A stretch of 64,000 nucleotides of DNA. Origin: Octopus vulgaris (Eukaryota). A program made the position numbers and the translations under genes. A model generated the notes under the pieces. It was not told where the DNA came from, did no database searches, and saw only the letters and a program-made list of their open reading frames with translations. The stretch spans positions 104,718,001-104,782,000 of the forward strand of contig OX597823.1 in assembly GCA_951406725.2 (NCBI GenBank), read 5' to 3'. This document shows positions 4,355-55,590 of the stretch, piece after piece; position 1 is the stretch's first letter; every line of letters begins with the position of its first letter.

Positions 4355-5790
4355 ACATTTTCAGTGACGTGACTGGTATCATCGGGTGTTTCGGGTCTTT
4401 CAACATCATACATCTTCCTCCAGGTGACCAGCTGGGGATGATCAGGCCCCAGCCTGTGTCCAGATGGTCAACTAGCTACCTCATGGCTCTCCTCTTTTGA
4501 TCCACACCCATGATGCTGATTACTACCTTGTGCCAGCGTGATGTTAATGTTCCCAAAGAGACCCTCTTCCCAGGATCATGTGGCCCCTCCTTGTCTATGC
4601 AGTCCCCTTCTCAACAGTAGAAACCTTAGAGAGGAGGGTCAGCAACCACCTCCGGAGATGGCTTGGTGTACCACACTACTGGTGGTACGGCAGATGGCCT
4701 TCCTCCTTCTCACTCCTCTGATGCCCAAACTACTGAAGGCTCTGGTCAGAGAATGGGCTACTAAACACCTGCATCCAACCTCCACTGGGAGATACCTCAC
4801 TCTCCAGCCAGCCTGCTGGCAGTCACTGACCAGACCTGCGTACTTGGAGAGTTTTCTCTCAAAAGTTTCTTCTAGGCGATCTTCCCATGGGACAGTCAGC
4901 TCCAGCAGCATCCCTTGCTTGGTGGACTAGACATGAGGACAATGTCTGGTCACAGGGTGGTGACCACGATGTGGTCGGGGAACTTCAGCTGAGGCTCAAG
5001 ATCCACTGGTAGCTGCCAGTCTCTTGCAGATGTTAGGATGCCTGCCGATGATTTTCTGGCAGGGGCTGGCTGTTCCCCAGCTCTGACAAAGGTGATGGTT
5101 TTCTTGGAGGGTTGGAACTGCTTTGTCCACACAAGTCCTGTGCTGATGGCTTCAGCGATGGTCTTAAGGAATTGGTCATGCCTCCAGTGGTACTGTCCTT
5201 CTCCAAGTGTCCCTGTGCAGCAGCTGAGGATGTGTTCCAGGGTTCCTCACTTGGAACACAGTGCACATATTGGTGTCTCTGCTATGTCCTATGTGTGCAG
5301 GTTTGATGGGCTTGGAAGTACATAGTACACTGCCTAGATGAGGAATTTAATGTGGTGGGGCTCAGCTTTCTACAGCTCAGCCCAGGTCACTTTCTCTCAA
5401 CTGCATTCTCCCATCTTGTCCAAGCTCCCTGTTGCTTCATTCCCACTGCCTTGCACGTTCTTATTCCTTCCACTGCAGCTCTCGCCTCCTCCTGAACAAA
5501 GCTCCTTGGTAAACAAAGCCATCTCCGGAGGTGGTTGCTGACCCTCCTCTCTAAGGTCTCTACTGTTGAGAAGGGGACTGCATAGACAAGGAGGGGCCAC
5601 AGGATCCTGGGAAGAGGGTCTCTTTGGGGACATTAACATCACACTGGCACAAGGTAGTAATCAGCATCAACACAGGGTGCACTATCTCTGTGACACTATT
5701 CTCCCTAGACATGAACATGCTTACCAAGTCTGCTGAGCCAGAGTGCAGAGGGCCCCTATTGAAATCCGGACAAAGGCAACCACACCCGTT
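4355..5790 (-). mobile_element. HERO-like RLE non-LTR retrotransposon, 5'-truncated and rearranged
   Basis: LLELTVPWE..ERKLSKY..GW..PVEVGCR (RLE), TLEHILSSC..WRHDQ (zinc knuckle) and LERRVSNHLRRWL on minus; RT segment [17 protein letters not shown] on plus at ~5615-5790. Confidence 0.8.
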
Positions 5791-11998: not shown

Positions 11999-12140
11999 GT
12001 ATACATATATATATATATATATATTTAAAATTAAGGATAAAATCTTTATAAGAAATTATCAGTAGTTAACGTGAAAAACCTTGTAAGAGAAAAAATCTGT
12101 AAATTTTTCCATTTTGAAAATATTTATTTATATTATATAG

Positions 12141-12281
12141 AGGGTACTATTATTCATAGGTACCGCACGCTAGGAGGGACTCTTGCAGTCAAAACTACTA
12201 AAATAAATTCGGTACAATTTGTTTATTTTAGTAGTTTTGACTGCAAAGTCCCTCCTAGCATGCAGTACCTATGAATAATAG

Positions 12282-12287
<6 letters not shown>
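12141..12287. repeat. Long inverted repeat (~67-bp arms, ~14-nt spacer)
   Basis: agggtactattattcataggtac...gtacctatgaataatagtaccct read directly. Confidence 0.9.
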
Positions 12288-12326
<39 letters not shown>

Positions 12327-20137: not shown

Positions 20138-20846
20138 CAGTTCTATATTTAAGATATGAGGAATTATGTACATTATTTACATTATTTACATCTGAAGGAT
20201 ATTTGTCCTCATCTTGTTTGTTGTTAACACAACGTTTCGGCTGAAATAACCTCCAGCAAATATCCCCTTTGAGTAAAACCACCAATAGAAGAGAATATGA
20301 CCAAGAACTGTGTGTACTACATCCCATGCAGGTGTAGTAGGTTATACAAAGGCGAAACATGTTTCCCCCTCAAAATAAGGGTAGACGAACATCGCAAAGC
20401 TGTGACACAGGGAGATATTGATAAATCGGGTATAGCTGATCATGTATGGAAAAATGGAGACCACCTCCACCTGTGGGGTGAAGTTAAAATAATAGACAGA
20501 GAGCACCACTGGAAAATACGAAAACTAAAAGAAGCAGCACATATGCTAGGGCACAACAACCTCCTAAGCAGACCGACTGCAGATATGAGTAGCATATAGG
20601 AACCGGTATTAAGGAAGGATAGAAAAATATTAGATTTATAAGACCTAAAATTCACTCCATAATTGCCCACGGGCAAATGGTGTAGTGGTTAAGTAGTTAA
20701 GAATGTGGTTAAGAATGCGGGCTACTAACCCCAAGATTCCGAGTTCGATTCCAAGCTGTGACCTGAACAATAATGGTGGTGGTGGTGGTGGTGGTGGTGG
20801 TGGTGGTGATGATGATGATGATGATCTCACTTAGGAATGAGAACCT
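20138..20846 (+). mobile_element. Penelope-like element: inverted partial pLTR (20138-20257) + GIY-YIG C-terminus (20297-20642) + start of pLTR with tRNA-like head
   Basis: VYYIPCRCSRLYKGET..RVDEHRK..SGIADHVW..RKLKEAAHM; inverted 5' pLTR is typical PLE architecture; same pLTR family as 41393-42269. Confidence 0.85.
20671..20764 (+). promoter_or_regulatory. tRNA-derived Pol III promoter-like segment within a PLE pLTR
   Basis: Box A-like tggtgtagtgg, anticodon-arm-like ggg-ctactaa-ccc, box B gagttcgattcc; no acceptor stem; copies at 41570-41642(-) and 41668-41741(+). Confidence 0.7.
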
Positions 20847-21360
20847 CTGAAGAAGGCTGTCATCAGCCAGGTTTTTCATTGTCCACCAAATCGCTCTCGC
20901 CAACCCTGAAGGGGAGCTGGGGCAATTGCTTTGTAGATGAATTCTCCTGGTTGACGATGGAGGGCATGACCCAGCCAATGTCTCATTAGGATGACTTGTC
21001 TTTCAGTCTTTGCGACTTTTTCAACTTAGATTAAGGCATGAAAAACAATTAAATTGAGGAAAAATTAAATGAAATGTCTTTTAAAAATATTTCTATAGTT
21101 TCCAAATACGAGGGACATTTTCCTTTTTTTCTCTCTGTTGCTGTCTCTCTTTTTTACTCATGTTTTTCTTTGTTTTTCTTGCTTTACTCAGACCCTCTGA
21201 TGTCTCTGGCAATGGACCTGACTGACTTGGAAGGATCGTTGAAAAAGTCATATAGACTGAAACTGGTACTAAAATGTTCTTCATGATAAAATTATTTTAG
21301 TATTTTCTACCTTGTCTTATTTTGCATAAATACATACATACATAGTACATACATACATAA

Positions 21361-26873: not shown

Positions 26874-29800
26874 TCAGCGGCACGGGGGCAACGAGGTCCG
26901 GGGTACTTTGGGGATCGGGGTATTTTGGGGATCCAGGGTACTTTGGGGATCCGGGGTACTTTGGGGATCCGGGGTACTTAGAATGGGTAGGGGGGTACTT
27001 AGAATGGGTAGGGGGGTACTTAGAATGGGTAGGGGGTATGTGGAATTGCTGCAGAAAGCAGCCCGGGTCTTTGTAGTCACAGCATATCTCCAGAGATCTC
27101 GGTCCTTCGCCATTGCCTCAGTGAGGCCCAATGCTCTGAGGTCATGCTTGACCACCTCATCCCATGTCTTCCTGGGTCTACCTCTCCCCCTGATACCTTC
27201 AACTGTTTGGGAGTGGCACTTCTTCACACATCTCTCTTCATCCATCCGCAGCACATGACCATACCATCGCAAGCGTCGCTCTTGCACACCACATCTGATG
27301 CTTCTTATATCCAGCATTTCTCTCAGGATACTTACACTCTGTTTTGCGTGCACACTGACACTACACATCCAGCGGATCATGCTAGCTTCATTTCTTTCAA
27401 GTCTACGCATGTCTTCTGCAGTCACAGCCCATGTTTCATTACCGTGAAGCATGGCAGTTCGCACACATGCATCATATAATCTACCTTTTGCTCTGAGGGA
27501 GAGGCCTTTTGTTGCCAGTAGGGGTAGGAGCTTTCTGAACTTTGCCCAGGCTATTCGTATTCTAGTGGTGATACTCTCTGTGCATCCACCTCCGCTACTA
27601 ACTTGGTCTCCCAGGTAGCGGAAACTATCAACTACTTCTAGTTTCTCTCCCTGGAGTGTGATGGAATCTGTTTTCTGAGTGTCTGTTGTGTCTATTGTCC
27701 CTGTGCATCTGCCGCACATGTAAGCTATCTTATCTGTTAATTTCCCTTTAATGTTGCTGCACCTCTTATGTGTCCATAACTTACATTGGGTGCATCTTAT
27801 GGAGTTTCTACCTGTACCTTTCCTACAGGTTGAGCAGGGCCACCTACCCGAGGGGATGTGTGTTGAGTACCTCTTGCTGCTTACTAATACTTTGGTCTTT
27901 GCTACATTTATTCTAAGGCCCTTTGATTCCAACCCTTGCTTCCATACCCGAAATTTCTCTTCTAGTTCCGGTAGTGATTCTGCTATGAGAGCTAGGTCAT
28001 CGGCATAGAGGAGCTCCCAGGGGCATCCCATTTTGAATTCCTCTGTTATTGCTTGAAGGACTATGATGAACAAAAGGGGACTGAGGGCTGAGCCCTGGTG
28101 CACACCTACTTCTACTCGGAATTCTTCACTATATTCGTTGCCAATCCTAACCTTGCTAACAGCCTCTCTGTATAGAGCCTGTACAGCCCTTATTAGCCAT
28201 TCTTCAATCTCCAGTTTCCGCATCGACCACCAGATAAGGGAACGGGGAACCCTGTCAAAGGCTTTCTCCAAGTCTACAAAAGCTATGTAGAGGGGTTTAT
28301 CTTTAGCTAGGTACTTCTCCTGCAGTTGTCGGACCAGGAATATAGCATCAGTGGTGCTTCTACCTGGTACAAAACCGAACTGCATTTCATCTAAACAAAT
28401 TCTCTCCCTAATGAGATTGGTTATGACCTTCTCTGAGACCTTCATCACCTGGTCCAACAGTTTGATACCTCTGTAGTTATTTCTATCTAGAGCATCACCC
28501 TTACCCTTGTAGCAGTTGACTATGGTACTGCTGCACCAGTCATTGGGTATGGCTCCATTGTGAACTACCTGGTTTACAATGCGGGTGACTATGGCATGGC
28601 CCACATAGCCAGCTGTTTTAAGCATCTCAGCAGTGATTCCTGATAGGCCAGGGGCTTTGCCTGGTTTCATATCCTTAATTGCCTTATCTACAAGGGAGCT
28701 GTCTATTCGGGTAGCTGGTCCCTCTACTGGGTCAACATTTGGCAGGCTCTCCTCCTCCCATTCATTCTCCTCATTTAGCAGTCTTTCATAATGGCTTCTC
28801 CAAGCCTCTTTCTTTTCACTAGTAGTAAAAGCAAGTGCCCCATCATCCATGCGGACACATTTCTCTCCTATAACATCGCTATTTTCTCTGACACACTGTC
28901 TGGCAATCCGAAATACTTCAGCTCTTTGATCCTCGCGACGCTGGACATTGGCAAACTTCTTCTTTTCTGCTACATCTTTGGCAATGTATACCTGCCGCCC
29001 AGCCTCCCTTTTGGCTATCTGGTACAGTTCCCTGCTGCCCCCATCCTTCCAGGCTTTCCAGGCCCGTCTCTTTTCACAGATGGCTTTATCTACTGCACTA
29101 TTCCACCACCACGTAATTCTAGGTCTGGAAGGGACTTTGCACCATCCACAAACTTGGTCTGTGGCACTCAACAAGCTGTCCCGTAGGAATTCCCAGCTAC
29201 CTTCTATGTCTGACGTCTGAAGCTCCTCTTCCCTCTCATCAAATTTCTTGATGAGTATGTCCCTAAATTTCTGACCATGCGAAGGGTTCTTTAGCCTCCA
29301 AATCCTTCTTTTCTGGATTGGTTTGTTTCTTGGAGTCCTTCTGGCCTCAAGCTTAAAGTCACTGATGATTAGTCTATGCTGAGGGATACATTCTTCACCC
29401 GGGAGGGTCTTTGTATTCAAGAGCAACCCTGCATCCCGTTGTCTGGTGAGGATGAAGTCTATTTGGCTAGCGGAGTCTCCTGACTGATAAGTTATAAGGT
29501 GGCAGACTGGCTTCTTGAAGTTAGTGTTGCAGATTGAAAGGTTACATGCATCACAGAATTCCAGTAGTCTAGTTCCCTCATCATTTCTGGTGCCAATACC
29601 ATATCCACCATGTACCCCAGTGAAGATACCCGATTCCCGCCCAACATGCCCGTTAAAATCTCCACCTACAAAGATGAGGTCCTTGTTACTAGTCTTTGAA
29701 GTAGCCTGCAGAAGGGTATCATAAAAGTTGTCCTTCTGATCATTTGGTAGTCCCGCTTGTGGGGCATAGGCTGAGATAATCATAGCTGTGCCACTCTGTA

Positions 29801-30200
29801 GGACCAACCTGAGCTTAAGCACTCTATCACAAACCCTGACAACCTCTATGACCTTATCCACCCATTCCTCCGCAAGGAGAATGCCTACACCCCCTACACC
29901 TTCCGCGTTACCTTGCCAGTAGAGTTTGTATCTAAGTGCCTTGCCCGTGAGGACCCTAGCCGAAGCATCTCTCCATCTTACCTCTTGTATGCAGCATACA
30001 TCAACCTGTCTTCTCTCTAGCATCTCTACAATCTCACTAGACTTGCCTGTCAATGTACCAACATTGATAGTGCCAACTCTGAAAACTGGGAAGGAGATGT
30101 GGGGGACAGGGGGGATTCGGCGCCTGAGAAGAGGAGGGTTGTAGTGGTGGTGATAGTTTTCGTGGTATTTTTCTTTTGATCTCTCTTCCAACCTGACCAC
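26874..30200 (-). CDS. RTE LINE polyprotein: APE endonuclease + reverse transcriptase + PHD finger (1108 aa, non-AUG start)
   Basis: EN motifs GTINVGTL, IQEVRW, SAYAPQ, GDFNGH, QIDFIL; RT motifs QFGF, FVDLEKAFD, GVHQGSALSPLLF, YADD; C4-H-C3 CSTC..CTQC..HKRC..CGRC; C-terminal RRLRWYGHVLRM..RGRGRPRKTW. Confidence 0.95.
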   Translation of the reverse strand: MVRLEERSKEKYHENYHHHYNPPLLRRRIPPVPHISFPVFRVGTINVGTLTGKSSEIVEMLERRQVDVCCIQEVRWRDASARVLTGKALRYKLYWQGNAEGVGGVGILLAEEWVDKVIEVVRVCDRVLKLRLVLQSGTAMIISAYAPQAGLPNDQKDNFYDTLLQATSKTSNKDLIFVGGDFNGHVGRESGIFTGVHGGYGIGTRNDEGTRLLEFCDACNLSICNTNFKKPVCHLITYQSGDSASQIDFILTRQRDAGLLLNTKTLPGEECIPQHRLIISDFKLEARRTPRNKPIQKRRIWRLKNPSHGQKFRDILIKKFDEREEELQTSDIEGSWEFLRDSLLSATDQVCGWCKVPSRPRITWWWNSAVDKAICEKRRAWKAWKDGGSRELYQIAKREAGRQVYIAKDVAEKKKFANVQRREDQRAEVFRIARQCVRENSDVIGEKCVRMDDGALAFTTSEKKEAWRSHYERLLNEENEWEEESLPNVDPVEGPATRIDSSLVDKAIKDMKPGKAPGLSGITAEMLKTAGYVGHAIVTRIVNQVVHNGAIPNDWCSSTIVNCYKGKGDALDRNNYRGIKLLDQVMKVSEKVITNLIRERICLDEMQFGFVPGRSTTDAIFLVRQLQEKYLAKDKPLYIAFVDLEKAFDRVPRSLIWWSMRKLEIEEWLIRAVQALYREAVSKVRIGNEYSEEFRVEVGVHQGSALSPLLFIIVLQAITEEFKMGCPWELLYADDLALIAESLPELEEKFRVWKQGLESKGLRINVAKTKVLVSSKRYSTHIPSGRWPCSTCRKGTGRNSIRCTQCKLWTHKRCSNIKGKLTDKIAYMCGRCTGTIDTTDTQKTDSITLQGEKLEVVDSFRYLGDQVSSGGGCTESITTRIRIAWAKFRKLLPLLATKGLSLRAKGRLYDACVRTAMLHGNETWAVTAEDMRRLERNEASMIRWMCSVSVHAKQSVSILREMLDIRSIRCGVQERRLRWYGHVLRMDEERCVKKCHSQTVEGIRGRGRPRKTWDEVVKHDLRALGLTEAMAKDRDLWRYAVTTKTRAAFCSNSTYPLPILSTPLPILSTPLPILSTPDPQSTPDPQSTLDPQNTPIPKVPRTSLPPCR
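26899..27040. repeat. In-frame 18-bp (x~4) and 21-bp (x3) tandem repeats at the LINE ORF end
   Basis: ggggtactttggggatcc and ggggtacttagaatgggtagg units; encode PQSTPD and PILSTPL repeats. Confidence 0.9.
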
Positions 30201-30427
30201 GCCGTGGGCAGGAGCTGGTGTTAGCAGTGGACATTTGTTATCGTCACTGAGTAACGTAATTAGGTAGAGGAAAGAAATACAGATATTCTAGAGTTGAGTT
30301 GGGGAGGGGGGGTCCAGTTGAGGCGGGTAATATAGGGGAGCAACCAGTGGGGAAGGTTGGGGTAAGGAGGAACGATGGCAGGAAGGGTTGGTGTAGGTTC
30401 CTAAGAAATAAAAACGTAGGATATTAC

Positions 30428-40877: not shown

Positions 40878-41447
40878 GTACATGTGTGTGTGTATTCCTA
40901 GACATATATATACACATATATAAAGTCTTCTCTTTGCGTCTGTTGGACTTATAGGAGGAGGGTGTTGCTGATCTCTGCGATCACACACCCCACGAGCCAC
41001 CATATGTTGATACCTGACATTATTCTGGGGATTCAGACTTTTATTGTTCTTCTGTCTATGTAGGATGGGTACATTATGAGCTGGTTAGTTTTACTGATTC
41101 CCACCGAATCCATCATGGCCAGCTCTTCTGTTTTAAAAAGGACAGAAATGGTACCAAAACTTTGGGTCCTTTGAATGAATTTGACATTCTCTCGGATTGA
41201 TCTCAGTGGCATTTCCACTTGAAAGTGGGAAGGTTGTTCTGCCCTCCGAAACTCCACCAAAATGCACCTATACATTACTGTTCTTCTTTCAATTTCTACC
41301 TCCACTTTGGCTGGGATTGCAAGGTTTTTTTCTCTTTTTATGAGTTTGTAGGCCTGGTCTAACATCTCTTTTTTGTTGGAGATGTCTATCTCCATTATTT
41401 ACATTATTTACAGTTGACGGATGTTTGTCCTCATCTTGTTTGTTGTT

Positions 41448-41493
41448 AACACAATGTTTCAGCTGATATACCCTCCAACCTTCTTCAGGTGTC
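41448..41493 (-). ncRNA. Hammerhead fold, mutated copy
   Basis: GACAC-CUGAAGA-A-GGUUG..CAGCU-GAAA-CAUU-GUGUU; stem III CG>CA change. Confidence 0.6.
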
Positions 41494-41742
41494 TTGGGGA
41501 AATTTCGAACCTGGGTTCTCATTCCTAAGGCATTTTTTGATGTTGTTATTATTATTATTATTATTTTCCAGGTCACTGCCTGGAATCAAGCTCGGAATCT
41601 TGGGGTTAGTAGCCCACGCTCTTAACCACTATGCCATATGCCTGTGGGCAGTTATGGAGTGAATTACGGGCATATGGTATGGTGGTTAAGAGCACGGGCT
41701 ACTAACCCTAAGATTCCGAGATCGATTCCAGGCAGTGACCTG

Positions 41743-41786
<44 letters not shown>

Positions 41787-41787
<1 letters not shown>

Positions 41788-42067
41788 TAGAATGTGGAAT
41801 CTGAAAACAGAAACAATTCCTATCATAGTAGGTGCATTAGGCATGATAAAAAAGTATTCAGACAAATACATAACAAAAACAACCAGGACTTACAAACACA
41901 TATAACATACAGAAAATTGCACTACTAGGCACTGCACACATCCTACGCAGAACACTTTCCATACAATAACCATCAGAGCATCACAACAAATCACAGCACA
42001 TACCCAAGGCACACAGAGCTGCGCTCGGTAGTGAAGTGAAAGCACGCTATAAAAATAAAACTACTGA
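41787..42067 (+). mobile_element. R4/Dong-like LINE 3' end inserted in the (AAT)n of the PLE pLTR
   Basis: MWNLKTETIPIIVGALGMIKK..IQKIALLGTAHILRRTLSIQ*; (AAT)n on both sides; near-identical to 55250-55525. Confidence 0.85.
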
Positions 42068-42144
42068 ATAATAATAATAATAATAATAATAACAACATCG
42101 AAAAATACCTTAGGAATGAGAACCCAGGTTCGAGATTTCCCCAA

Positions 42145-42190
42145 GACACCTGATGAAGGCTGGAGGGTATATCAGCTGAAACGTTGTGTT
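42145..42190 (+). ncRNA. Minimal type I hammerhead ribozyme fold
   Basis: GACAC-CUGAUGA-A-GGCUG(gaggguauau)CAGCU-GAAA-CG-UU-GUGUU; palindromic stem III; predicted cleavage after 42185. Confidence 0.78.
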
Positions 42191-43054
42191 AACAACAAAC
42201 ATGATGAGGACAAATATCCGTCAACTCTAAATAATGTACATAATTCCTCATCTCTTAAATATAGAACTGGATGTCTGTCTCATAGTACTTTTGTTGGCAT
42301 TTTGCAGCTGCTGATGCAAAAGTACTTGTTCTGCTCTCACTGTTGATGGTGGTGGTAGAATAATTCATCTTGTTACTACTAATGCTACTTCCAAATACAC
42401 CCACCTCTCTCTCTGTTGCTGGTGTTGATGTTGGTATTGGTTGTGTTCTCATTGATGTTTTTGTTGTCATTATTCATTCTGTTATTGTCTTCTCTTATGC
42501 TTCTCTGCTCCTCAATCCGTGTTGTCGGAGTTGTTATTTTCTGTGGTGATATCAGTTATCAAAGCATTTTCCTCATTTTTTCTGTTTGGGAAGTTGGCAG
42601 TTATATTTTCCTCGTCTATTCGACTATCAAGTGATTGTGTGCGCTCCATTGTGTCACCTTTCTCTGTCATAATACTTCTTTGTTCTTTGCAGTTAATTTT
42701 ATCATTGTCCATAGGGTCTGTGGTGCTTTTGGATTCGTTATAAATTTTGTCCTCAAAATTGATACTTGTGTCAGTGAAAATTAAGTTTCCATGACTTTTC
42801 CTGCTGTTACAAACTGGTTTGTTTTGCGTTAGAAGGTTATGCCTCTCCACACCATTTTTCGTTTGCAAATGTGTAAACATTTCGCAAATACTAATATTTG
42901 GACTCAAGGCCCAAGTATTATTTAACTCTTTTACTGGGGACAAAGACTATCGTCTTATGCTCCCTTTTAAACAATAATATCAATGAAAACAGTAGTTTTG
43001 ATAACAAAAATGCCTGTCAAGCTTCCACTGACGTTCTAGCCTTCCAACCAGAAG

Positions 43055-50011: not shown

Positions 50012-51220
50012 TCCGTTGGATGTGTAATGTCAGTGTTCATAGTCGACAGAGTGTAAGTACCTTGAGAGAAAAGTTGGACCTAAGAGGAATCAGATGTTGT
50101 GTGCAAGAGAGACGATTGCGCTGGTATGGTCATGTGGTGAGAATGGATGAAGATAGGTGTGTGAAAAAGTGCCACACCCTGGCAGTTGAGGGGACCTGTG
50201 GAAGAGGTAGACCCAGGAAAACCTGGGTCGAGGTGGTGAAGCACGACCTTCGAACTCTAGGTCTCACCAAGGAAATGACCAGAGACCAAGACCTATGGAA
50301 GTATGCTGTGCGTGAGAAGACCCGGCAAGACCAGTGAGAACAATCAAAATCAAATCATATATCAGAAAGCAGGGGTTAAGTGACCCATCCGTTCGTGTCC
50401 GCTGTCAGCCCTGTCTGGCACCCGTGCCGGTGATACGTAAAAGCACCATTCGCTCATGGCCGTTTGCCAGCTCTGCCTGGCCCCGTGTCGGTGGCACGTA
50501 AAAGCACCATCCGTTCGTGTTCGTTGCCAGCCTCGCCTGGCCCCGTGCCGGTGACACGTAAAAGCACCGTCCGTTCGTGGCCGTTTGCCAGCTCTGTCTG
50601 GCCCCGTGTCGGTGGCACGTAAAAGCACCATCCGTTCGTGGCTGTTTGCCAGCTCTGTCTGGCCCCGTGTCAGTGGCACGTAAAAGCACCGTCCGTCCGT
50701 TGCCAGCCTCGCCTGGCCCCCGTGCCAGTGACACGTAAAAGCACCGTCCGCTCGTGGCCGTTTGCCAGCTCTGTCTGGCAACCGTGTCGGTGGCACGTAA
50801 AAGCACCATCCGTTCGCGTCCGTTGCCAGCCTCGGCTGGCCCCCGTGCCGGTGACACGTAAAAGCACCGTCCATTCGTGGCCGGTTGCCAGCTCTGTCTG
50901 GCCCCGTGTCGGTGGCACGTAAAAGCACCATCCGTTCGTGTCTGTTGCCAGCATCGCCTGGCCCCGTGCCGGTGACACGTAAAAGCACCATCCGTTCGTG
51001 GCCGTTCGCCAGCTCTGTCTGGCACCTGTGCAGGTGGCACGTAAAAAACACCCACTACACTCGCGGAGTGGTTGGCGTTAGGAAGGGCATCCAGCCGTAG
51101 AAACACTGCCAGATCTGACTGGGCCTGACGAAGCCTTCCAGCTTCACAGACCCCAGTTGACCCGTCCAACCCATGCTAGCATGGAAAGCGGACGCTAAAC
51201 GATGATGATGATGATGATGA
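50008..51220 (+). mobile_element. 5'-truncated RTE (ORF C-terminus to 50337) with a ~60-bp tandem array (x11) in the 3' UTR
   Basis: MLRWMCNVSV..RRLRWYGHVVRM..EKTRQDQ*; cgtaaaa anchor recurs about every 60 bp from 50436 to 51040; (GAT)n tail. Confidence 0.92.
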
Positions 51221-55002: not shown

Positions 55003-55525
55003 TATTCAGTAGTTTTATTTTTATAGTGTGCTTTCACTTCACTACTGAGCGCAGCTCTGTGTGCCTTGGTTTGTTGTGATGTTCTGATGGTTACTATTGA
55101 AAGTGTTCTGCAGATATAGTTGTCAGAGATCATGAAGAAAAAAAATGCTTTCTAATTGATGTATCAATACCGGCAGATGACAACGTGTCTCTAAAAGAAA
55201 TGGAGAAACTTTCAAAATACAAAGACCTTGGAAATAGAGGTAACCAGAATGTGGAATCTAAAAACAGAAACAATTCCTATCATAGTAGGTGCATTAGGCA
55301 TGATAAAACAATATTCAGACAAATACATAACAAAAACACCAGGACTTACAAACACATATAACATACAGAAAATTGCACTACTAGGCACTGCACACATCCT
55401 AACGCAGAACACTTTCCATACAGTAACCATCAGAGCATCACAACAAATCACAGCACATACCTAAGGCACACAGAGCTGCGCTCGGTAGTGAAGTGAAAGC
55501 ACGCTATAAAAATAAAACTACTGAC
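55003..55525 (+). mobile_element. R4/Dong-like LINE 3' end (55110-55525) preceded by an inverted copy of its own 3' terminus (55003-55110)
   Basis: LIDVSIPADDNVSLKEMEKLSKYKDL..IVGALG RLE motifs; (AAT)n and (ATT)n flanks. Confidence 0.82.

Positions 55526-55590
<65 letters not shown>

Follow-up and report, generated by a model that had tools for sequence, protein, structure and literature searches.

The window analysed here is a 64,000-nt stretch of the Octopus vulgaris genome (GCA_951406725.2, contig OX597823.1, 104,718,001 to 104,782,000 of the forward strand), and all coordinates without a locus name refer to positions in it. At 20138-20868 lies a copy of a Penelope family with an endonuclease; the copy is decayed and truncated at its 5' end. 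Its parts are as follows.

20138..20257, minus strand: inverted pseudo-LTR arm, truncated 5' and representing the 3' part of the repeat, 88% match to the family repeat
20256..20641, plus strand: 5'-truncated end of the Penelope ORF with its GIY-YIG domain, 94.7% match to the family majority
20642..20670, plus strand: spacer of 29 nt, the last 14 nt able to pair with the first bases of the head
20671..20767, plus strand: tRNA(Arg)-like head, with box A at 20678-20688 and box B at 20743-20752
20768..20829, plus strand: triplet tract, (TAA)n in the family, drifted to GGT/GAT in this copy
20830..20868, plus strand: beginning of the repeat's coding part, with ATG at 20837-20839, and a hammerhead disrupted by a deletion

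A first-pass annotation of 20138-20846 had read the end of a GIY-YIG frame, about 30 bp, a tRNA-like segment, a triplet tract and cttaggaatgagaacc in this order. We find the same order, with a spacer of 29 nt and with cttaggaatgagaacc at 20830-20845 after the tract. The coding piece represents the last 380 nt of the GIY-YIG-bearing ORF; it ends with the family stop (TAA, 20639-20641) and carries a premature TAG at 20597-20599. It matches the PF01541 (GIY-YIG) part of the protein P0069 at 38% with an E value of 2e-18, and a Pfam search with the piece alone gave no match. The genome has 4772 candidate relatives of this piece, of which 150 were scored. The head copy at 20671 has a private duplication after box A, and the GAAAC of the hammerhead is absent, lost to the deletion. 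The end of the spacer and the start of the head (20657-20680) form an imperfect hairpin with a CACG loop, an apparent relic of an inverted junction that may record the capture of the head.

A second locus, at 41394-42269, consists of two arms of the same repeat placed back to back.

41394..41665, minus strand: left arm, comprising spacer, head, triplet tract and degenerate hammerhead
41666..41745, plus strand: head of the right arm, starting 2 nt before the head's first G (41668)
41784..42068, plus strand: 3' fragment of an unrelated LINE inside the triplet tract, foreign to the element, with C-terminal coding remnants; 96.8% match to 55241-55552
42095..42269, plus strand: rest of the right arm, with ATG (42116-42118), hammerhead and repeat end; the frame is open across the hammerhead
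42145-42190, plus strand: intact minimal type I hammerhead by descriptor match (stem I, stem II, palindromic AACGTT), with the cut predicted after 42185

Here the earlier reading, in which the order of the first locus recurred at 41393-42269 and continued into a hammerhead, stands in part. The repeat does recur and the hammerhead of the plus-strand arm is intact, but the spacer ttcactccataactgcccac belongs to the minus-strand arm; the plus-strand arm starts 2 nt before its head and has its triplet tract split by the LINE fragment of ~300 bp. This fragment and its counterpart at 55241-55552 resemble R4/Dong C-termini. LINE fragments of this kind break up several head copies elsewhere in the genome. 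The window also holds an intact LINE ORF of 1137 codons on the minus strand (26874-30287) whose product has AP endonuclease and RT domains plus a weak, sub-threshold match to a PHD finger (E 0.0004) directly behind the RT, a near-perfect 160-bp hairpin at 12134-12294 that is perhaps a miniature inverted-repeat element, and a tandem array of ~61-bp units at 50385-51026.

Related loci define an element of about 2.9 kb with the order head, (TAA)n, ATG, minimal hammerhead, ORF of ~830 codons (RT, then GIY-YIG), 29-nt spacer and head again. In the per-column family majority, whose ORF combines two overlapping segments of 266 and 569 codons, the ATG lies just past the triplet tract and opens a frame that crosses the hammerhead and continues into the ORF; in related loci the 5' end of the ORF is joined directly to the upstream repeat. 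The 569-aa frame of a locus found via an outward walk through related loci (L031) matches PF00078 with an E value of 2.7e-06, below the gathering score, and the C-terminal part of the ORF aligns with the PF01541 region of P0069. Homologues number 2980. One ORF with an RT followed by a C-terminal GIY-YIG domain is the layout of EN+ Penelope-like elements, and a placement of the family in the Penelope/Poseidon clade would be based on this domain order. Partial-tandem pseudo-LTRs are seen in the maps of L471 and L475, of which L471 is complete (ORF end, spacer, head, repeat, full ORF, spacer, head, repeat), and both window loci have inverted 5' arms. The 3' ends of 70 copies fall mainly at repeat positions 140-159 (37 copies) and 170-176 (27 copies), two classes about 30 nt apart, as in the optional 30-40-bp tail known from such elements. 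Most genomic copies are solo repeats of ~270 nt with the head at the start, often with an inverted arm as well, and many ORF-linked repeats hold just 80-480 nt of ORF; 13 of 30 junction loci end at ORF positions 207-267. The copies mostly diverge from the family majority by about 5-15%, and no young, intact one was seen among those examined. A search of the genome with a distant protein for sister families devoid of the head gave the head-bearing family itself in all 30 loci retrieved.

The head is a regular part of this element. Among 71 distinct ORF ends with enough downstream DNA, drawn from 110 loci picked by ORF sequence only and leaving out copies that miss the ORF end itself, 67 are followed by the head, as are 29 of the 33 that bear the RT. 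Three of the four exceptions keep part of the head and the fourth is deleted through it. Because of these 67 ORF ends and the two heads in tandem in L471, we regard the head as part of the element and not as a SINE insertion; a chance SINE insertion into the copy at 20138-20868 is ruled out by the same count. In the other direction, we took the first 90 of 2931 exact matches to a head motif, all on one contig, C1, with two rows being the arms of one insertion; of these 90 head copies, 76 have the repeat tail within 700 nt and 86 the triplet tract within 60 nt. None of the 90 joins the head to a different shared body. By eye, the 14 without a repeat tail share no alternative body either, as an independent SINE with another body would require; in several of them a LINE fragment interrupts the triplet tract. 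When 70 copies were picked by the 3' part of the repeat, 31 had the head and the remaining 39 end within the repeat or triplet tract; all seven that reach the spacer or ORF pass through the head, and no spacer-to-repeat join lacking the head was found among them. The claim of the first-pass annotation that the tRNA head belongs to the element is thus borne out, and neither of the observations it had named as contrary, pseudo-LTRs mostly without the tRNA segment or independent SINE occurrence, was made.

By sequence the head is tRNA-derived, yet it does not form a foldable tRNA. It is identical to the host tRNA-Arg(TCG) in 47 of 71 columns, with a local score of 61 against 26.8 +/- 4.1 in shuffles, and it keeps the invariant bases of the A and B boxes. 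The comparison drew on ten tRNA-like sequences of the host that cover six amino-acid types (63 candidates scored, 34 matches); Arg is the closest among these, which makes an Arg origin provisional. ARAGORN found no tRNA in the window, a search of Rfam returned neither a tRNA nor a hammerhead match, and an acceptor stem is absent; on these grounds we rejected a functional tRNA, or RNase P processing of one, at the head. ARAGORN also reported none in 45 of 80 metagenome Penelope loci, a result to be read with its failure to detect the present head. Seven tRNA-Cys-like genes or pseudogenes are clustered within 3 kb at another locus of the genome (L266, G000 C12:25267077-25270148). A 22-letter motif of the head occurs exactly 2931 times in the 2.8-Gb genome and its reversed control not once; it is therefore not a chance match. 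Dividing the exact matches by 16/81 gives roughly 15,000 head-bearing arms. tRNA-derived retroposons of octopus were reportedly described by Ohshima and Okada in 1994. Taken together, this is an old and abundant Penelope family whose repeat opens with what is probably a captured tRNA promoter, and the feature is real.

The positions at which copies begin bear on the function of the head. Counted from the head's first G, 52 of the 90 head copies end at -12 to +5, 19 further upstream and 19 at +6 to +28; among the 19 reaching upstream, 13 enter the ORF, spread to -776. The rate of ends is 0.069 per nt at the head start versus 0.0045 upstream, a 15-fold pile-up. The 52 piled-up ends comprise 26 with an inverted arm ending elsewhere, 11 with an inverted arm reaching within 12 nt of the head start, 14 with plain flank and no element sequence upstream, and one direct junction; inverted arms are thus present at 37 of them. 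One of the 11 (L214) scores better as a direct junction. Six direct junctions, five of them distinct, start at -6/-7 (L158 and L166, which are identical, L163, L240, L213 and L214), and three start elsewhere (L150, L154, L217). L158 and L166, both on G000 C3, join ORF position 234 to the head and possibly represent a small internally deleted subfamily. In 48 loci with the repeat joined to the ORF start, a set found partly with a query that begins at the head, the head is present in 14; ten reach its first ten bases, where eight stop and two run into the spacer. Three of the 14 plain copies have repeats of 10-12 nt that bracket head and repeat together. In three RNA-seq runs of one study, 369, 297 and 314 reads lose homology at -7 with an inverted-head overhang; these breaks are genomic junctions within host RNA, so they enlarge the sample of this boundary without measuring a start site.

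Pol III type 2 promoters start transcription a short distance before box A. The copy ends at -6/-7 are most simply read as marking a fixed RNA 5' end at about this position, which is 13-14 nt ahead of box A and where such an internal promoter would start. In the spacer of the first locus, we infer this end to lie at 20664-20665 (-7/-6 from the head). Many of the inverted arms probably arose by fold-back at the junction hairpin, a mechanism that could not have produced the plain and direct ends. Two other sources of the boundary were rejected. RT stalling at a structure in the spacer is disfavoured by the weak folding of the spacer alone (-7 kcal/mol), and RNase P processing by junctions that keep bases to -6/-7, with no stop at +1.

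The sense strand of the family majority is free of T4 runs, over 910 nt (median depth 46) and 1972 nt (median depth 61). In the ORF, codon-aware shuffles predict 2.8-3.1 T4 runs where none is observed (P 0.027-0.037), and near-terminator patterns are likewise absent where 5.3 would be expected (P 0.007); T3 runs show no depletion there (13 versus 16.3 expected, P 0.15). The LINE ORF at 26874-30287, used as a control, has seven T4 runs with 6.2 expected. As a further control, 36 distinct stop-free stretches of at least 400 codons from the 80 metagenome Penelope loci contain 261 T4 runs (223 expected); 35 of the 36 have T4 and none is free of near-terminators. The one T4-free stretch, where about 0.5 would be expected by chance, is in a metagenome contig (L364, 2200-4560) that is the closest Penelope relative found (48% in the best segment). 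It lacks T4 over ~2.1 kb of ORF and has a T-rich repeat, a hammerhead at 4522 and no tRNA head. Among 17 control hammerhead sites, T4 occurs within 150 nt upstream in 11, and both A and B boxes occur upstream in none. As a sign of Pol III the absence of T4 is suggestive: the test was chosen after inspection of the sequence, it compares a majority sequence with single copies, and the absence is possibly a lineage trait.

The first-pass annotation went on to propose that each pseudo-LTR could be its own short Pol III ribozyme transcription unit. Our data do not support this as worded. The repeat of the family majority has no T4 terminator and its ATG frame runs through the hammerhead into the ORF; it thus resembles a promoter for the RNA of the element more than a short ribozyme gene complete in itself. 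The hammerhead at 42145-42190 conforms to the minimal type by motif, and its cleavage is a prediction; among 70 copies, only 3 start at the position of this cut, which also led us to reject hammerhead-cut RNA as the main template. The short copies would be better explained as reverse transcripts from the 5' end of the element's own RNA. They occur dispersed, as single or back-to-back units, and in this and in their starts they depart from SM-alpha-type repeats and non-LTR retrozymes.

We therefore consider it probable, though well short of certain, that this is an autonomous Penelope family in which the tRNA(Arg)-derived head of the pseudo-LTR serves as an internal Pol III promoter and of which the first locus is a decayed copy. 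The promoter role is likely, and transcription of the full length by Pol III possible; from the boxes, copy ends and T-runs we infer its use of the head. More tentatively, the whole 2.9-kb RNA could be made by Pol III, the Pol II promoter having been swapped for the tRNA promoter, T-runs purged from the 830-codon ORF, the RNA translated without a cap and SINE-like copies made from its 5' end. Pol III would start 6-7 nt before the head of the upstream repeat and, meeting no T4 terminator, run into the ORF. The RT would start internally ~120-155 nt after the ATG, near the 3' end of the repeat, as in an anole element (PMC11167929), and copying back to the RNA 5' end would yield SINE-like solo copies. 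A start at the downstream repeat of a tandem transcript would yield ORF-bearing copies, smoothly truncated. The hammerhead would need a partner or a protein to cut and would not be required for template making.

No sequencing run listed as containing the element is registered as RNA. In three unstranded RNA-seq runs, 68-72% of element reads continue into unrelated sequence, and the matches listed show no pile-up of starts. Contigs of four runs with four organism codes hold the ORF end, spacer, head start and repeat; among the matches listed, one piece (X18 record 24) bridges the ORF end to the head. Pol III RNA is uncapped, so translation is unexplained if Pol III makes the whole RNA, and this keeps alive two readings in which Pol II is involved, both of which we consider unlikely. 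The head may drive Pol III synthesis of template RNA only, mostly short, while protein comes from Pol II read-through of copies embedded in host transcripts or from an unrecognised Pol II promoter. This would solve the cap problem and fit both the embedding of most element reads in other sequence and the many copies with just 80-480 nt of ORF, but it does not predict the lack of T4 and near-terminators across the whole ORF, and ORF-bearing copies need a long template too. Alternatively, and with about the same small probability, the head may be an old SINE or tRNA fragment carried in a master repeat, with a Pol II internal promoter as in Drosophila Penelope and a pile-up produced by fold-back at the spacer-head hairpin. 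The D. virilis Penelope repeat does have a TATA-less Inr/DPE internal promoter (PMC2377424), an Inr-like TCACTCC lies in the present spacer at about -17, the relative L364 is T4-free yet head-less, and the junction hairpin could prime the fold-back suggested by the inverted arms on 37 of 52 piled-up ends. Against it, the arm comes within 12 nt of the head start in just 11 of the 52, another 14 lack an inverted arm altogether, direct junctions also fall at -6/-7, and only 3 of the 90 ends lie at -13 to -30, near the Inr-like motif.

A separate question is whether the short copies are an independent SINE lineage mobilised by Penelope, one of which the coding element gained at its 3' end. Solo copies outnumber ORF-linked ones, 71 of the 90 end at or after -12, and three of the 14 plain copies have the repeats of 10-12 nt around head plus repeat. 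By size (~270 nt), number (2931 exact matches) and tRNA identity (47/71), solo copies also fall within the SINEBase definition as applied here (<1 kb, interspersed, 100 or more copies, tRNA identity of 60% or higher over 60 nt). They do not behave as a non-autonomous lineage apart from a partner, since the head is present in RT-bearing copies and variants at two sites are common to both classes (G/T 44 vs 26, A/A 17 vs 4 and A/T 18 vs 8 in 166 solo vs 81 ORF-linked copies), as expected if both stem from the same masters. Solo copies also carry spacer bases upstream of the head, and the head stands upstream of the ORF start in 14 of the 48 junction loci and in the tandem L471. We regard this origin as improbable, the least favoured of the readings considered, and retain an autonomous element with a head that probably acts as its promoter.

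Much of this architecture is familiar. Hammerheads, tandem and inverted repeats and tails are described in Penelope elements (PMC8557442), and retrozymes have been presented as Penelope derivatives (bioRxiv 10.64898/2026.07.22.740005). The family shares with EN+ Penelope/Poseidon elements, as reported for D. virilis Penelope (PMC2377424), Anolis Poseidon PAc (PMC11167929) and in a structural summary (PMC8557442), a single RT-then-GIY-YIG ORF, partial tandems, inverted 5' arms, 3' end classes ~30 nt apart, a start codon upstream of the hammerhead cut and, if our reading is right, a promoter and start site inside the repeat. In PAc the start codon lies 26 nt before the cut, internal RT initiation was demonstrated in vitro and uncut RNA was used (PMC11167929). 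The characterised D. virilis promoter is LINE-like and internal, TATA-less, with Inr/DPE in the repeat and an intron (PMC2377424), whereas the present repeat opens with an A/B-box head and (TAA)n and has no sense-strand T4. The ribozyme resembles the hammerheads of PLE repeats (Cervera and De la Pena 2014, PMC4209133) in its type I core, extra base before stem II, 5-bp stem I and palindromic minimal stem III; it has the dimer-type architecture described there and seldom defines copy ends. A tRNA head or Pol III promoter is not mentioned in the sections of that report considered here.

A Pol III-type promoter followed by a type I hammerhead is found in Schistosoma SM-alpha and Sj-alpha (PMC6765202, PMC8490949). 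Those repeats are described as non-coding, usually tandem and released by self-cleavage, whereas the present unit is the terminal repeat of a coding element. A small-RNA-derived Pol III promoter within a terminal repeat is known from the TRIMp3 elements Cassandra, Helenus and Ajax (Kojima 2024, PMC10886601), which are non-autonomous LTR elements of 311-1263 bp; the present element is autonomous, ~2.9 kb long and non-LTR. The autonomous partners of TRIMp3 are argued to need Pol II, Pol III being weakly processive (PMC10886601). In being short, numerous and tRNA-like at 60% or more over 60 nt, solo copies resemble tRNA-derived SINEs (SINEBase, PMC3531059); unlike these, they are the repeat of an autonomous element, have inverted arms and would rely on the RT of a Penelope element instead of that of a LINE. 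A and B boxes are an indication only of Pol III transcription (PMC3531059). An annotation of octopus repeats lists Penelope and SINE families, and its relevant sections note no link between them (PMC13282606). We found no coding Penelope element with a tRNA head in the literature searched, mostly at the level of titles and abstracts. What is known, then, are the hammerheads, tandems and tails; the tRNA-headed repeat of a coding Penelope element and the pile-up at the head start are new here.

By current definitions, Pol II transcribes autonomous retrotransposons and Pol III transcribes SINEs (PMC3531059, PMC10886601). This divide would be blurred by a protein-coding element driven from a tRNA promoter. 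Such an element would let a SINE-like family descend directly from an autonomous one, and it would offer a natural test of how long, and how translatable, Pol III transcripts can be. Even if Pol III makes the template only, the family shows that genomic copies can reveal the 5' end of a Penelope RNA and that apparent tRNA-SINEs of this genome, thousands in number with ~15,000 head-bearing arms, are ends of Penelope elements.
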